DNA of 63,509 nt, counting the filler, from Atractiella rhizophila (lineage: Eukaryota), in NCBI GenBank assembly GCA_021432655.1. It is 4 parts of 3 records of this genome, joined end to end, with 100 filler letters (N's around TTAATTAATTAA, not from the genome) between each part and the next. Parts side by side here need not be neighbours in the genome. Positions count along the whole stretch, not along the records: positions 1 to 27,318 come from MU271745.1; 3 more parts are not named here. One strand, given 5' to 3'. Position numbers and translations under genes: made by a program. Positions 12,888 through 53,347 of the stretch are shown here, one piece after another; within the stretch, counting starts at the first letter, position 1, and each line of letters starts with the position of its first letter. The notes beneath the pieces are model-generated. The model made no database searches, was not told the origin of the DNA, and saw only the letters and a list, made by a program, of their open reading frames with translations.

Positions 12888-15800
12888 TCACTGCCACAGG
12901 ATTCCCTTATCCAACACCCTATGAACAGTCAACAGTCCACTCTTCAGTTCATCGATCTTATAGCTCTGCGTATCCACCTTCCCGTGACTGACGTCAAAAA
13001 CTCTGATCTTCTTCTTCTTCGCATCGTAATCAGCCACGACAGCGAACAGAGGCTCATTGGGTCCTCCGACCTTAAGGGATGAGCCTATCTTGCCCTTGAA
13101 TTTGCAGTCCCAAGCAGCAGTAATGTCTCCTGGTCGAGGCTCATCTATTTCTTCGAGAGAGAGATGCTTCGAATCTGATACCTTAGAAGCAACAAACACT
13201 TTGAGGCCGTAGGATGAACCAACGCGCGGTAGAGCGTTCGGGATACTGGAGACGATCCCATCAATGTATCCGGCACGCGCATCCGTCGTTCCCCTCGCTC
13301 TTCCCCAGATCTGAGAGCCGATGGTCTGTGAGAATTGCGCGAGATCTCGCTGCAACTGGCGAGCAGAGAGGGCTCCAACAATCCGTTGAGAGATTGAGGT
13401 ATTGTGATCGTCTCTGTCTCCATCAGCAAAGGAGAGGTCCACTACTGTCCTGGAATAATCATCGAAGACAACATTGATTTGATACGTGAAGAAAGCAGTG
13501 CCAGACTGGATCGCAGATGTGCCAGTGATCTCTGTCCTCGTGTCTGGAAGATGAAATGAGGCCGGTACACGAAGTGGTTTCGCGTGCCACCATTTGGAAT
13601 CGAGGGAAAGATCAATCTCATGAGCTTTGGATCCTGGGTGTGCCCTCAGGTCAAGCGATCCACGAACCTTTCCCGGGACAGAAGGAGGAGAGATATGGTA
13701 GTCATGATAACTTCCCTGAGAAGTGACATGGGCCAACTGCTCATGAGCAGGAGGAGATGCTTCCATCGGTCTTGGACCTGAAGGTCCCTCCATGGAGGGT
13801 CGGGGAAGATCCGTAGAAAGTCGAGGTCTCCCAGCCGGGAGAGGTGGTGGAGGTGCATCATCTCCGTTATTGAAAGCACTGTCCATCTCCTGAGCAAACT
13901 CTTCAATTTGACTTGGATGCTGCTCTAGCGTCGGAGGACGGCGCGTTGGAGGCACGGAGCTATGCGAAGCGCTGGAGCCTTGTCGTCGAGAGGATGCCGT
14001 TGTGGCAGATCGCCCATGAGCTGGCACTGGCGGTGCTTCGGATATCAAAGCCTCTGGCTCTTCTTGCACGTTGTCTGCGACAATGGGCTGAGGTTCAGGT
14101 TGAGACGGTAGTGCTCGTAGTGGACGACCTGAGGGAAGTGCAGGAGGTGCCTCCTCTTCATCCTCCTCTCCGCCGGATTCTTCCTTTTCCTCATCGTTGG
14201 CAGGTTTCTCCTCAGCAGGGGCAGAGGGAGTCCGCATGGGCATGATTCCAGGCAGAGCAACACCACCCATTGGCACTCCCCTTCTCGGAGGGGGGAGCGC
14301 CGGCGGTTTCTCTTCCTCTTCCGCTTCTACTCATCACATCAGCATGCTGTCAAATGAAAGCAAGGGCGGGACAAAAATCGCACCATCCTCCTGTGTCTTC
14401 TCCCGAGTTTCCTCTTCAGTCGGCTGTCTCGGTGGTGCCTTCTTCGGAGGTGGTCTCATCCCCATAATGGGCATCCCAGCGAAAGCGGCCCGTCCACCAA
14501 GTTTCGCCATGCGCTCCGCAAGGGCAGTTTTCCTTGCCACCTCTGGATCCTCTTCTTCCTGCTTCTCCGCCTCGGGCTCTGATCCAACGAGAGGAGGAGA
14601 CATCTTCGGGGGAGAAGCGACTGGTGGGGCTGCAGCTGGAGGAGAAGATACCTGATGAGCTGGAACGGTGGCAGGCGGCCGTTGCCCAGATGGAGGGACT
14701 GTGGGAGGGACAGATTCTTCCTCGTCAGACTCTTCCGCCGTCATAGGAGGGACGATAGGTAATTCCAGCTCCTTTCTTTCGCCGATCTCCTGAACGGTAG
14801 GCGGCGGCGGCGGAGGGCTATCCTCTAGTACCTGAGCAGCAGCCTCCTTTTCCTCCTTGACTGCTGCATCCTCGCCGTCAGGGTGACCTTCCAACCGCTC
14901 CTTCTCATCCTCTAAGCTCTTCTCCAATTTCTCCAATCCCTCCTCACTCTTCACTTCTTTAGTTCCCTCCACCTCGTCCTCCAGCGCTCTATCTACCTCT
15001 TTCACTTCCTCAACTTTTAATCCTCCATCATCGTCTGGAGGAGTGAGAGAAGATGTAGGAACAGGTGGAGGTGGAACAGCTGGGACCACGTCTTCCTCTT
15101 TCAGCTCAGCAGTCGTAGTAGCAGGGGTAGAGGTATTGCTCTTGCTCGATCCTCCCTTCCTCTTCGGCGGTGCAGCTCTCTTCGGGAGCGCAGGCATGGC
15201 AGCACCAGCGAGGGGAGGGGAAGCCGCTTCTGTGATTGGGGGAGATTGCACAGGCGGGGATTCGACGAGTGGAGGAGAGGCGGTTTCTTCAGCCGGAGGA
15301 GAAGCCGCTGAAGCTGGTGGGGGAGCAGGCTGTGGCTTGCCTGGGATGGGAGGACGGGCACCGAACATTCCCATGCCCATGCCCATACCACCTCCGAGTT
15401 TAGCCATCCGAGCCGCGATCCTAGCTCGTCGTTCTTTCTCCTCCTGCTCCTCGTCCACCTCCCCCTTTTCCCCCTCCTCTTCTTGCTTCTCCCCCTCCTC
15501 TTCCCCACCATCTCCAGAGCCAGAGGCACCGCCACTTGTGGTTCTTGAGAGCATGGGTGGCCGTCCAATACCCATGAGCGGCATTGGAGGGCTTGCACTA
15601 GTCGCTACTTCTCCTTCTTCAGCAGGTGGTGGAGGTGGCGCCGGAGGCCGCTTCCATACCTTCCCTGTTCCTGCTGGTTTAGGAGGCGGCGGTGGAGCAG
15701 CACCACCCATCCCACCTTGGAGCGCAGCCATGCGCTCCTTCAAACTGAGTCCTTTGCCAATGCTCGCTTTCGCATCGGCGGCGGAGAACTCGCCATCTTT

Positions 15801-16784
15801 CTTTTGTTCCTTCCCCTTCTCTTCCGACGCATCACTGACCGGAACTGCAGGCGCGTTTGCCGGTGGAGATGGAGTGTTGGCTGGTACGGGAGGTGGCATC
15901 GCCTTCCGAAAGGCGGCAGGTTTCGCCGCGCGCGGTGGTGGACCAGCAGCAGCTGGAGACGGTCGATTGAATGCGGCGATACGGTCGCGGAAGGATCCCA
16001 CTGGCTTGGTCTCTTGTTCTCCTCCTTCTCCTGGTGCGGATGCTGGAGTAGATGGAGGTGGTTTGGGTGCGGCTGCTTTAGGAGGAGAGGCGGGCAGCTG
16101 TGGTGGAGACGACGGGGCTTCTGGCGCTGGAGTTAGAGGTTGAGGAGTTGGAGCGAGCGCTGCTGCACTGGGCAAGTGCGGAGCTGGTGGAGGCGGTGAG
16201 GTCTCAGGTAGTGGAGTTGCGACTTGCGGCGTAGCTGAAGGGGGAGCGACGGTTTTGTCCTCGTCGTCCTTCTGAGCTGCAGCAGGTGGGGATTCCACAG
16301 CTTCGGGAATGGCGTTCAGGATCTCATCCGGCGACGCTGGAGAAACGGCAGGCACGTCGGTGTTTGCAGGCGTGGGAACAGGTTCCACGACACCTCCTGA
16401 CGTCTCTTGCGGAGGCGGTGGAGGTGGTTGCAACAGCTCTTCAGGCTCAGGCTGGAGCTCCTCCGAGCTCGGGACCTCATCGATGAGTTTCGCCTCCTTC
16501 TCATCGTTCGGCGGATCGTGTGTCACATCATCCTCTTCTTCCACCACAGCTGCAGGTGCAGGTGCAGGAGGCGGTTCTTCGCCCTCCACCCGTTCGACAA
16601 AGGCAGCGGGGAACACACCTTCGATCCCCTCCGACGTAACGCCTTTCAGCCATTCTCCTTCGTCATCGGCCGCCTCCAAGACTGTGAGTTTGTCACCCTT
16701 GACGAACGCGAGCTTCCCTGCGCCAGGTGGTGACTTGTATTTCATTAGCGCGAGGGCGGGGTACGGATACGACTCCGAGGCCAT
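12888..16784 (-). CDS. BBC1: SH3-domain, proline-rich myosin-tail-interacting protein (Bbc1/Mti1-like)
   Basis: N-terminal SH3 (ALMKYKS..LAFVKGDKL..EWLKG..EGVFPAAFV), Pro/Glu-rich body with ERMAKLGG repeats, and a C-terminal domain ending KKKKIRVF..SYKIDELKSGLLTVHRV. One intron at 14327-14383. Confidence 0.85.
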
Positions 16785-17151
16785 CTAGTCCTTGCCATTA
16801 GATCTTTCGCCTGTCACTACGGGGACAGCTGAGCTCACGGTGAGTGTAGCTTCCTTGCAGCACTTCCTGGGACGTCGATATGATCGTGGGTTCGGGAGGG
16901 GTGGTAACGAGGTTGTCTCTCATTGTCCGACTACTCCCACCAACAGTTTCTGATCTTGAGGGTGAAAGGTGGGACGTCGAGTAGCAGTTAGACAAATTGG
17001 TATCATCCGATATACCCTGAGCTCATAAGAAGTCTAGAAGAGTACATTCAGGCAACCGAGGTGGATAAACGAGATTATATCGACAATATAAAGCTGCTAC
17101 TGAGTATTTCTACACTTGAGATCGGGTACAAACTCTCAACGTATGAATGTA

Positions 17152-18827
17152 TCAGTCTAGATCCTCACTCATTGTTCTAACCTGCCCGATGGGTAAGAAG
17201 TCGCTCATCCGTAACGGCCTCATCTGTAAGTCCTACATCAAGTGTTCCTCTCAATCAATGGAAAACATCCCCTTCGAAGGAAGGACTTGCCTCTTTCCCC
17301 TCTAGAGCTCCGTCATACATCCTCATGAACTCTCTCACCGGCCCCATCGCCGCCTCTCTACAAAGCTCCTTTAAGTCGCTCCCACTCATCCCGTGCGTCT
17401 CCAATGCTACTTGCTCAATCGAGAATTTGTCCTCGAGGGCAATGTCACGCAAGTAGAGAGAGAGAATCTTATTGCGCTCTTTGACGCCAGGGAGTGGGAC
17501 GGGACACCGTTTGGGGAGACGGCGGAGAAATGCCTTTCATGTGCCCTTGATTAGCAAGATTGGCCCTCTCACAAGGGAATGGGGACGAACGTCGTCAATA
17601 TCTTGTACCCGGTTCGTTGCGCCGAGAACAAGAACGCGCGAAGAGGATGTGGTTGATAGTCCATCCCAGAGGGAAAGGAGCTCTGATTTCCTATCCGGCA
17701 CAGTAGGCTATAAACTTTGTCGAGCCGATAAAGGGGAAATGGTTACACACACTGGGTTGAAAGATTAGAGAAGCTGTGACGGAGCTAGCTGAAGACACGT
17801 ACTCATGCCTGTCACTTCATGGTCTGACATACTCCGCTGCCGTAAAAAGGAGTCGATCTCATCGATAAAAATGATCTGTTCAGTGGCGTGAGGCAAGAAT
17901 AAGTGTTGGCGCACTAAACTGACCGTTGGTTCGAGCTTTTTAGCTAATGAAAATACGGCATTGACCAGTTTATTCGATTCTCCAAACCTACATTCCAATT
18001 ATTAACTTTCCTACTAAATGGAAGAGATAGAACGCACCACTTGTCCGTCAGTGTTGACATTTTCAAGTTGATGAAAGCTGCGCCAGATTCCTTTGCAAGT
18101 GCTTTGGCGAGCATGGTCTTTCCGCACCCTGCGAACATTGAACAAATTCAGTGAACTTGAACGATAGACAGATGTTGGAGTACTAACCTGGAGGTCCATG
18201 TAACAGCACGCCTTTTGGAGCGCCAAAGAGCCCCGCTGAGGACTCGAACACCTGAGGATGTGTGAGGGGAAAGATGACGGATTCTCGCAGCTGTCCAATA
18301 ATGTTTTCAAGACCGCCAATATCTGTTACCATCACCCATATTCTATCACATCTGCTACGGAGCCCGTTCCTCCAAGATAAATAGGCGCACCTTGAAAACC
18401 ACAGTCTATGTCTTTTGGGACGACGAGCTCTTGGGCTATTATCATCTCGTGCTCTGTGAGCACCAATTTTCCTCCTTTTTGCCTCTTTCCAAGTCCAGCG
18501 TCTGTAAGAGCCTGTGCAGCCTTGCTCTTTGCATCTTTCGTTTTGGACTTCGTTGGGTCAGTGGCGTCGAGGACCCACTATTCGACAGGATGTGAATGAG
18601 CTCAGAACCCTCCACGTAACAATAGATTGAACGCACTTTGAACGTGTAATAGAAAGCAACCTGCCCATTTTCATCAGCTTTGCACAGGACGAATGGTGCA
18701 GACACACCTGGGCAATGGCCAGTATGGCAACTTTACCACTCCATCAGCACCACACTCAACTGCCTCTTGGTGAAGAGATGAGCTTACCATCTGCTAAAAA
18801 CTTGGTGGGAATTGTCTTTGGTGCCAT
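17152..18827 (-). CDS. MSP1: Membrane-anchored AAA+ dislocase Msp1/ATAD1 (multi-exon, includes a 1-nt exon at 17751)
   Basis: N-terminal TM segment, [19 protein letters not shown] (Walker A), [20 protein letters not shown] (Walker B), [32 protein letters not shown] and [15 protein letters not shown]. Confidence 0.95.
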
Positions 18828-20108
18828 CCTGCTTGACTGTCCAAAGGGCAAGAGTTGTGAATTTCGGTTATGGAACGACGGGAATGTACGTACGCTTTGT
18901 ATGTACACCTTAAGTTATGGCGGGAAGGTTTCCCTTGCTGGAAAGGAACTTGCATAACGCTGGAAGCTCTGGCTTCAGAGCCACACCTAGCCGATATCCC
19001 CGTTACCTCGCGAACTCCTCATTCATGTTTTCACGATGGTCCTCTACCATACTTACGCTCGGCTGGAGCTCTCCAAGCTCTCCCTCGCTCGACGGTCCTT
19101 GGTCCTCTATGGTCTAGCCCTCCATGCCCACGAACACTACTGCTAACTGCCACCCGTCCACGGTGCTGGCGTATCGTATTCTCAACCACGACTCCTCCTG
19201 GGAAATTTAGTCAGAGCTATTTTTCTTGTCCACCTGAAGCTCTACAGGAGAAGCGGCAGCAACGGCCCCAGCCCACTTGATCTCCCTCTGCAGTCGAATT
19301 CGACGTTTGTGTCTGCAATTGTCTCATAACTGCGTTTACTCTCCTTGGTCACATCATTTCCACCAAGCTCCAACTTTTAGCTCCTTCCAATCTTTGCAAT
19401 TCGTCCAGAACGCTGGTGACAGAACGTTCGCTGTCTTTGCTAGAAAATCTTCAAAGCCTTCGACATGCAAAGATGTCTAATTATAATCGTTCCATAGAGA
19501 ACTTTCCGAATCTATGTATCAGGTTTGTGAGGCGAGAAAAAGCGGCACAACATTACCAACTTGTGAGCAATTGGTAAGAGCGAGCGCAAGAACTAAAGAT
19601 CTCATCGCGACAAAGGCGAGAAACTGATCTCTCCCTTGCCTTGCACTCAAACAATCAGAATTATTACCTCCCGCATTAGTCCGCCATCGCAGCACATCTG
19701 ATAACTCCCCACGAGAGCCTTTATAATTGCACACCAGGCCGACAACAAATCGTCCAACCTGTTCTAGGAACGATGATAGAATCACAAGAAAATACTCAGG
19801 CTGCACATGATTGGCAGCTCTCCTTCCTCTCCTCCCCTCCCTAAATCTAAGTGGCAGCTTCCGCTCCTCCTTACTCCTGTCCACGATTCAGCTTGTTATC
19901 AAGCGCGACCTGACGTATGACCGATTTGCAGTCTACAGAGGCGAACATCTTGGAGAGAGAAGCAGAGCAAGGTTGGTCAAAATACAGAATGTAACGTGAC
20001 TTTGTTACTCCGGCGAATTCCGACGGATACGATAAATCCAATATTCCCGCTGTGGTAGGTTTTGTGTCTTTTGTTCCACTCTCTTACCGCGAGGACAAGC
20101 AAACCATC

Positions 20109-51574: not shown

Positions 51575-53347
51575 GAGAGGATCGAAGTCCCTCAACCGAG
51601 AATCAACATCACGAACCCCAACGACCCAGCACGAACGATCATTACCCCCTACAGCGCATCTAATTTCCGCAAGCAACTAAAGAAGTATAATCTCCTAAAC
51701 GAATTCCAACACGTCGTGCACGGCATCCGAAATGGCTTCAACGTCGGCATTGCGACACTACCTGAACTACATACATTCACCCCACCCAACACCCCAGTCG
51801 ACGATGCCAGGAAGCGTTTCATCCATGGCTACATCCAGGAGGAGAACGCCAAGAAGAGGAACTTTGGGCCCTACAACCGGGAGGAAGTCTCCGAAATATT
51901 TGGGGGCAAGGGCTGGAGGTCGAATCCGCTCAATGCCGTCCCAAAGGCCGGTGCCATGGACGAATTTAGGCTCATAGAGAACGCCTCCAGAGGGGGTCTA
52001 GACGAATCCGGAGAAGACTGGCCCTCGGTAAACGACCTCATCGACTCTGACGACTTTCCCACAGAATGGACTGCCTTCTCACAGGCGCTCCTCGACTTTG
52101 CACAGCTCCCGAAAGACGCCGAAGCAATGACCATCGACATAGCGGAAGCCTTCAAAACCATCCCTCTCGACGAAGAGTCAAGGCGGGCCTTCGTCATACA
52201 GGACTACAACGGCAACTTCTGGATCAACGTGGTAGGATCGTTCGGAACCTCATCCCTACCAGGGGTATTCGGCAGTGTAGACGATGCTTGGGTAGCCATA
52301 GCCAGGAAAAAGAGGTGGAAGAAGATCTGGAAGTGGGTAGACGACCACGAAGTAATCCGGTCGAAATCACTCAAGATCTGGGGAACAGAGGAAGACTTCT
52401 TCAGCGACCTCGACGGCCTAAGGATACCATGGCACCTCAAGAAATGTGCGAAGTTCTCTCACCTCGTCAAGTTCATCGGCTTCGTTTGGGACTTCCGCGA
52501 ACACACCATTTCACTCCCGAGAGAAAAATTCATCAGAACACTCCTCACGGTCCAAACGTGGCTCCAACCGAACTTCAGAGCGACCTTAGCGGAAGCCACC
52601 CACCTCCACGGCTACCTCCAACATGTCGCCTTCGTCATGTTCCAGTGCAAGCCATATCTCACGAATCTCATAAACTTCATCGCCTCGTTCCCACACGCCT
52701 TAGGGGAAGAAAATCCCTGGCTCCTCAAGCGCGGTACACTACATCTCCCCAAAGGAGTCCGGAAAGATCTTCTCTACTGGCACGAACAACTAACGAAGGG
52801 ACCACCCATCCGCAAAGTCACCAGACTCGACAAACCAGTCTCATTAACCTGGTTCGGAGACGCCTCCCTGGCGTACGGCATAGCGGTCCAGATCCACGAA
52901 CACTGGAGCGTCTGGACTTGGACAGAAACCACCAAAGAGGAAAGGAAGATAGGCTGGGGTGAAATGCTAGCCGTAGAACTAGGGGTACTCCTACTCGAAT
53001 GGCTCCTGAGCAGGAACAGAATCACTCTCAAGAAGGACCATCGAGCCGTCATAGTCAACACGGACAACCAGGGAGTCGAAGGAATCCTCCGTAAGTGGCG
53101 AGCAAGGAACCACGAACAAAACCAGTCACTCAAGAGATTGAGCGAAGTTACACAACGACTCGACGTTACCCTAGTACCCACATGGATCCCTTCCGAAGAG
53201 AACCCAGCGGACCGACCCTCAAGAGGCTCCTTTTCTCATCTCAAATACCAACTTTTCGTCTCCATACCAGTTCCACAACCAGTATCCAAGTTCATTATAA
53301 GCCACTCTAATCCTTCTTCCCTTCCAGTACCTAGTACTTTAGCATAG
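51575..53347 (+). CDS. Reverse transcriptase-RNase H of the YR retrotransposon
   Basis: Frame is open from the gap (IITPY..GF). RT motifs: NPLNAVPK, FRLI, SVND, DIAEAFKTIP, SFGTSSLPGVF, WVDD, FIGFVW. DIRS-type RNase H: FGDAS, GEMLAV, TDNQGV, WIPSEENPADRPSRG. Confidence 0.95.
   Translation, partial: ERIEVPQPRINITNPNDPARTIITPYSASNFRKQLKKYNLLNEFQHVVHGIRNGFNVGIATLPELHTFTPPNTPVDDARKRFIHGYIQEENAKKRNFGPYNREEVSEIFGGKGWRSNPLNAVPKAGAMDEFRLIENASRGGLDESGEDWPSVNDLIDSDDFPTEWTAFSQALLDFAQLPKDAEAMTIDIAEAFKTIPLDEESRRAFVIQDYNGNFWINVVGSFGTSSLPGVFGSVDDAWVAIARKKRWKKIWKWVDDHEVIRSKSLKIWGTEEDFFSDLDGLRIPWHLKKCAKFSHLVKFIGFVWDFREHTISLPREKFIRTLLTVQTWLQPNFRATLAEATHLHGYLQHVAFVMFQCKPYLTNLINFIASFPHALGEENPWLLKRGTLHLPKGVRKDLLYWHEQLTKGPPIRKVTRLDKPVSLTWFGDASLAYGIAVQIHEHWSVWTWTETTKEERKIGWGEMLAVELGVLLLEWLLSRNRITLKKDHRAVIVNTDNQGVEGILRKWRARNHEQNQSLKRLSEVTQRLDVTLVPTWIPSEENPADRPSRGSFSHLKYQLFVSIPVPQPVSKFIISHSNPSSLPVPSTLA

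Follow-up and report, generated by a model that had tools for sequence, protein, structure and literature searches.

A single thymidine at position 17751, read on the minus strand, very probably forms a genuine exon of its own, one nucleotide long and constitutively included, in a nuclear Msp1/ATAD1 gene from Atractiella rhizophila, set between two short spliceosomal introns of ordinary length. The feature is real, and through it three exons combine in one codon, beside a pore loop that has been functionally tested. Exons of a single base are known, though rare; the Msp1 instance is newly found, and brings in a conserved housekeeping AAA ATPase from a little-studied fungal lineage. Positions below count along the window, by which we mean the whole stretch of DNA that was analysed (63,509 nt, filler included), and the coordinates of the features are collected in Table 1.

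Table 1. Features of the Msp1/ATAD1 homologue and of its deposited model, in window coordinates
Feature	Position	Strand	Details
Msp1/ATAD1 homologue coding region	17152..18827	-	12 exons, 11 introns, 353 aa; ATG 18827..18825, stop TGA 17154..17152
Small exon, 23 nt	18708-18730	-	predicted N-terminal anchor; transcript joints; already in public model
Small exon, 24 nt	18637-18660	-	predicted N-terminal anchor; transcript joints; already in public model
Exon 8, 73 nt	17803..17875	-	24 residues; last base A is codon base 1 of the split ATG
Upstream intron, 51 nt	17752..17802	-	donor GTACGT, putative branch site CTAAT 17768..17764, acceptor CAG
One-base exon (exon 9), T	17751..17751	-	second base of ATG codon, Met213
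Downstream intron, 60 nt	17691..17750	-	donor GTGTGT, acceptor TAG
Exon 10, 100 nt	17591..17690	-	first base G is third base of the split ATG; then 33 residues
Last intron, 58 nt	17233..17290	-	GC-AG, donor GCAAGT; joint 17231/17290 in X4 and X5, 3 letters slack
Acceptor AG used by P0002	17683..17684	-	single 120-nt intron; joint in no contig

The gene and its three-exon codon

The exon joins of our 353-residue model are the joints found in transcript contigs, with the cuts moved to GT/GC-AG within the available slack. Its 81-residue exon (17291-17533) is 100% identical to public protein P0002, whose source name is 'AAA-domain-containing protein [Atractiella rhizophila]'; we take this organism to be a basidiomycete of the Pucciniomycotina. 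P0002 carries Pfam domains AAA (PF00004, 1.6e-36) and AAA_lid_3 (PF17862, 1.7e-11), and HMMER ranks as best solved chains Msp1 of Chaetomium thermophilum (6pdw, 3.2e-96) and full-length yeast Msp1 (9l3m, 8.1e-96, aligned in one stretch over residues 8-315), followed by ATAD1; Cdc48/p97 scores come close, but are totals over two domains. By these similarities the gene is an Msp1/ATAD1 homologue, and by homology it would share the function of Msp1, the extraction of mislocalised tail-anchored proteins. A hydrophobic stretch of 23 residues (10-32) aligns with the N-terminus of full-length yeast Msp1 and forms a putative membrane anchor. Pore-loop 1 is present as DKWFGES, with W-F in place of W-Y, and the pore-loop-2 histidine is found in DHEVTGM; the pore loops have been defined for Msp1, where this histidine is H227, and mutation of neighbouring pore-loop residues is reported to impair Msp1 function (PMC7018516). 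The codon made from three exons, M213 of the 353-residue model, lies six residues past the histidine aligned to H227, and its earlier assignment to the pore-loop-2 region is therefore roughly right.

Exon 8 ends on the minus strand as ...CAT GAA GTG ACA GGC ATG A, and the upstream donor follows as gtacgtgtcttc. This first intron (17802..17752) starts gtacgt and ends ctctaatctttcaacccag; the lone T comes next, after which the second intron (17750..17691) opens with gtgtgtaacc and closes with ctactgtgccggatag (...gccggatag), ahead of G AAA TCA GAG CTC of exon 10, which aligns to ATAD1/Msp1 chains. The coordinates and lengths that a first-pass annotation of this DNA had given for the T and both introns agree exactly with the minus-strand sequence, and transcript contigs place a joint at the same exon 8 edge, 17803. 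T17751 has a canonical acceptor (AG) directly before it and a canonical donor (GT) directly after it (cccAG-T-GTgtgt), and the AG-N-G[T/C] site that carries this T is the only one among the 112 nt separating the coding exons. The introns interrupt one codon in phase 1 and in phase 2, so that A from exon 8, T from exon 9 and G from exon 10 make up ATG. The flanking coding exons share a genomic reading frame and are 114 nt apart, and a productive mRNA must therefore retain a multiple of three bases. Excision between the canonical GT...AG pair at 17802..17691 takes out 112 nt, one too many. Exons of 3 or 5 nt, which a shift along GTGTGT would create, break the frame, as had been claimed.

In length, both introns are unexceptional for this gene. 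Nine others confirmed by transcripts measure 57, 47, 59, 68, 59, 50, 48, 57 and 58 nt, and lengths of 51 and 60 nt fall inside this 47-68-nt span, where 112 or 120 nt would be about double. The donors GTACGT and GTGTGT are usual, and GTGTGT also opens the intron confirmed at 18707. A textbook CTAAT lies in the upstream intron, and its A at 17765, 13 nt before the acceptor, is the putative branch point by consensus match; the downstream intron offers a weak site, the best candidate being TTTAT at 17714..17710.

As a bare pattern, the arrangement occurs at chance level. Pairs of GTNNGT...YAG introns (42-66 nt) lying 1 nt apart number one in the window against 0.45 expected from 40 first-order Markov simulations of it, and pairs lying 1-3 nt apart number two against 1.2; the case therefore rests on coding context and transcripts, the motif aside. 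The other match at 1-3 nt, a 'TT' at 52789..52788 (minus strand), is likewise at chance level and lacks a clear coding context.

Transcript and genomic DNA contigs

Four sequencing runs (X1, X3, X4 and X5) were compared with positions 17150-18830 as assembled contigs rather than raw reads. X1 is DNA-like, with depth in 30/30 bins and zero joints. X3, X4 and X5 have zero depth in the bin 17720-17776 and cover neither flanking intron, and among them they contain ten joints, each of which fits GT-AG or GC-AG after the listed slack. We take these three runs to be RNA because of the ten spliced joints and the missing intron cover, X4 having been labelled RNA by guess and X3 and X5 being unlabelled; their contigs also confirm the nine other introns of the gene, which identifies them as spliced transcripts.

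All three of the intron-lacking runs join 17803 to 17690, skipping 112 positions and placing one letter in between. The ends of the joint read CT..AC on the plus strand, equivalent to GT..AG in gene sense, and have no positional slack (both values 0). Joint depth is 281.8 in X3, 6.91 in X4 and 3.8 in X5, with 74, 73 and 30 letters, respectively, on the shorter side, and on the exon 10 side X3 record 12, X4 record 15 and X5 record 24 show 0 other letters across 17590-17690. The inserted letter is A on the plus strand, that is T in sense, which gives the junction ...GGCATGA-T-GAAATC...; the cDNA predicted from the genomic sequence, GGCATGA-T-GAAATCAGAG, is thus borne out by contigs of X3, X4 and X5. 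Its strand being unstated, we read the inserted letter as plus strand like the companion tables, where reading it in contig direction (all minus) would give a sense A; we prefer the plus-strand reading because those tables are plus strand and because only T has a canonical source. No single excision can yield this junction, since a G adjoins both 17803 and 17690 in the minus-strand sequence. The extra base must therefore come from inside the 112 nt, and the one AG-N-G[T/C] site there, carrying T, makes T17751 its source.

We consider it highly improbable that the extra base stems from something other than a one-base exon, be it an artefact of contig assembly or alignment, a difference between strains, an edited or non-templated base, or a sense A. 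Such a reading can draw on the use of contigs as evidence and on the unstated strand of a letter for which all three contigs lie on the minus strand, but the same lone letter recurs in three runs, of which two belong to separate named studies and the third has no recorded study, and these runs differ in part in their allele patterns (letters at 17477 and 18255 occur in X5 only). Neither ATGA-T-GAAA nor ATGA-A-GAAA is obtainable by a single excision, the flanks being without that adjoining base, and the 112 nt hold one canonical source for a T and none for an A. A sense A would moreover encode AAG (Lys), unlike all 41 homologues with this position, which have L, V, M or I.

The same contigs bear on whether the gene is decaying or unproductively spliced, with the 112 nt removed as one intron and the frame shifted. 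Although 17802..17691 is a canonical GT-AG pair, a plain 112-nt joint without the extra letter is in no contig, the shifted frame ends after 287 residues with loss of the second half of the AAA domain, and the remainder of the gene is intact and conserved, all of which makes this account extremely improbable. Contigs of X3, X4 and X5 contain neither a 120-nt joint nor the T-skipping 112-nt joint; contigs drop rare forms, and splicing intermediates, like minor isoforms of either kind (the public 120-nt intron or T skipping), could be hidden from them.

The genomic DNA carries no indel at the site, a finding on which the first-pass annotation had been prepared to give up its reading: X1 record 4 spans 17582-17901 with 0 other letters and 0 gaps relative to the window. 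X1 may be source data of the window's assembly and hence not independent of it. Elsewhere in this run, two sequence versions are present at 17366-17552 and at 18249-18414 with 6 and 9 differences in a contig, as though two haplotypes or nuclei had contributed; over 17582-17901, which includes both introns and the T, there is a single version, identical to the window.

Homologues and the deposited protein

Including the T places 31 residues between Walker B (DEID) and WDG, the spacing seen in 40 of 44 database proteins. The exceptions are P0045, a 926-aa plant protein with 32 residues, the fragments P0003 and P0008, from which the region is absent, and P0002, the sole case with 28. At the three-exon codon itself, counted over 43 proteins (P0001 and P0002 left out) of which 41 have the region, the residue is L (31 proteins), V (7), M (2) or I (1); the position is hydrophobic in every one of the 41, consistent with ATG. 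Both the reading frame and the conserved protein depend on the T. The protein collection that we searched contained no protein of 65%-99% identity and hence no close relative, and a metagenome scan with the generic AAA patterns GKTMLAKA and [IM]IFIDEID returned 79 loci at 36-47% identity, mostly as uninterrupted matches, with no usable intron-bearing Msp1 relative among them. In P0003 and P0008, both short and from assembled contigs, homology begins at FMTLWDG and MTLWDG after unrelated residues, which hints that some ascomycete Msp1 genes may have an intron a few codons downstream, at a different position.

P0002 reads HEVTGM-KLLSLWDG, taking 17802..17683 as one 120-nt intron and so becoming 3 residues shorter here. 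Were the public model right, AAA TCA GAG would be intronic, and the 120-nt reading is indeed canonical, in frame, free of stops and deposited. We nonetheless give it very little credence: its 17803/17682 joint is found in 0/4 runs, where the 17803/17690 joint is found in three; its 28-residue spacing is unique among the 44 proteins; HMMER opens a 3-residue gap in P0002 exactly there against 6pdw and 9l3m, within a conserved stretch; and an intron of 120 nt would be roughly double any confirmed one of this gene. As a minor isoform, the 120-nt intron is possible. It is one of 14 in-frame, stop-free single GT/GC-AG introns that we enumerated around the site, which refute the earlier claim that a single long intron must give a frameshift or a stop; none of the 14 removes 111 nt, so none yields the spacing of the homologues.

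The deposited model also errs at the last intron, which it reads through into a false 15-residue tail, where the spliced C-terminus carries the conserved RPL..DF stretch. The deposited protein is therefore wrong twice, with 3 residues missing at the one-base exon and a false C-terminus, and the second error indicates that P0002 was evidently built without these transcripts. Structural or comparative use of P0002 as deposited inherits both errors.

Other one-base exons and proposed stepwise splicing

Transcript-supported one-base exons are still few. Going by the accessible parts of the respective papers, they comprise plant APC11 and VPS55, Fusarium CYP621A and 13 Coprinopsis genes, and the first-pass mention of one described case, in Arabidopsis APC11, has been superseded. 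The APC11 exon (Guo and Liu 2015, PMC4674806) is, like the Msp1 exon, a constitutive one-base internal coding exon between spliceosomal introns, missed by public annotation and needed for the correct protein; its authors favour intron definition, with the introns removed one after the other. Their case concerns a plant and another gene and was shown by reporter constructs and RT-PCR, whereas ours comes from transcript contigs, and the Msp1 introns are much shorter than those of APC11. Plant APC11 and VPS55 have conserved 1-nt microexons with RNA-seq and RT-PCR support (Yu et al. 2022, PMC8831610). These were likewise unannotated in the reference genomes, their omission giving a wrong protein; they are flanked by conserved donor sequences and, as a point of difference, were shown to be conserved throughout the land plants, some lineages having alternative forms.

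The one-nucleotide exon of the Fusarium P450 CYP621A, which its authors present as the second example and the first in fungi (PMC12940212, 2026), is similar in being fungal, in its AG-N-GT within an 'intron' of about twice the usual length and in supplying the middle base of a conserved codon. It was confirmed by public transcript reads, and nearly all public models are reported to be wrong there. CYP621A belongs to Ascomycota and its exon is the G of a glycine codon (AGGGT), whereas that of Msp1 is the T of ATG in a housekeeping AAA ATPase. Long-read annotation of Coprinopsis cinerea, like our organism a basidiomycete with short introns, lists 13 one-nt exons in 13 unnamed genes, annotated genome-wide from transcripts (PMC12230235); the accessible supplements of that paper do not mention MSP1/ATAD1. 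Literature on one-base exons and on Atractiella introns yielded no report of the Msp1 case, the papers listed on Atractiella and introns (6 of the 7 with both terms) yielded nothing on microexons, and a Cryptococcus paper (PMC3990503) uses 'microexon' for an aligner setting only. Stwintrons of filamentous fungi (PMC5587772, PMC6616335) resemble the Msp1 arrangement in consisting of two adjacent U2-type introns, which are removed in consecutive reactions, but there the inner intron splits a splice signal of the outer one (donor, branch site or acceptor), and no base is retained. We rejected a stwintron at the Msp1 site, where each intron has its own full set of signals and the mRNA retains one base, and rejected a zero-length recursive site as well.

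Each of the two introns would be recognised alone by intron definition, as presumably are the other 47-68-nt introns of the gene. The predicted branch site (17765) and the acceptor of the upstream intron would lie within ~15 nt of the downstream donor, a distance at which two spliceosomes hardly fit, and the introns are probably removed one by one. Either order is possible because the unspliced neighbour can serve as the flanking 'exon', and both orders would give the same product. With its 51 nt + 1 + 60 nt, the site is a small natural substrate on which to study how the spliceosome deals with a donor that follows an acceptor after a single base. It also supports letting gene predictors accept 1-nt exons wherever an 'intron' has twice the usual length.

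Skipping of the T by a 112-nt excision shifts the frame after Met212, and translation would end at mRNA position 861, 119 nt short of the last exon junction, leaving a non-functional product of 287 residues; retention of either intron stops translation within about a dozen codons. A role for NMD is conceivable. The further proposition that the one-base exon is old and conserved in basidiomycete MSP1, that its introns leave in a fixed order and that T skipping sets the level of Msp1 through NMD strikes us as doubtful; if true, it would turn an annotation curiosity into a regulated splicing checkpoint in a proteostasis gene. RNA folding of the 132-nt region gives -22.8 kcal/mol, no better than shuffles (z = 0.91; 169/200 shuffles equal or better). 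Along the composition profile of the window, positions 14001-16000 have a G+C of 0.59, against about 0.48 elsewhere, and an AT skew of -0.19.
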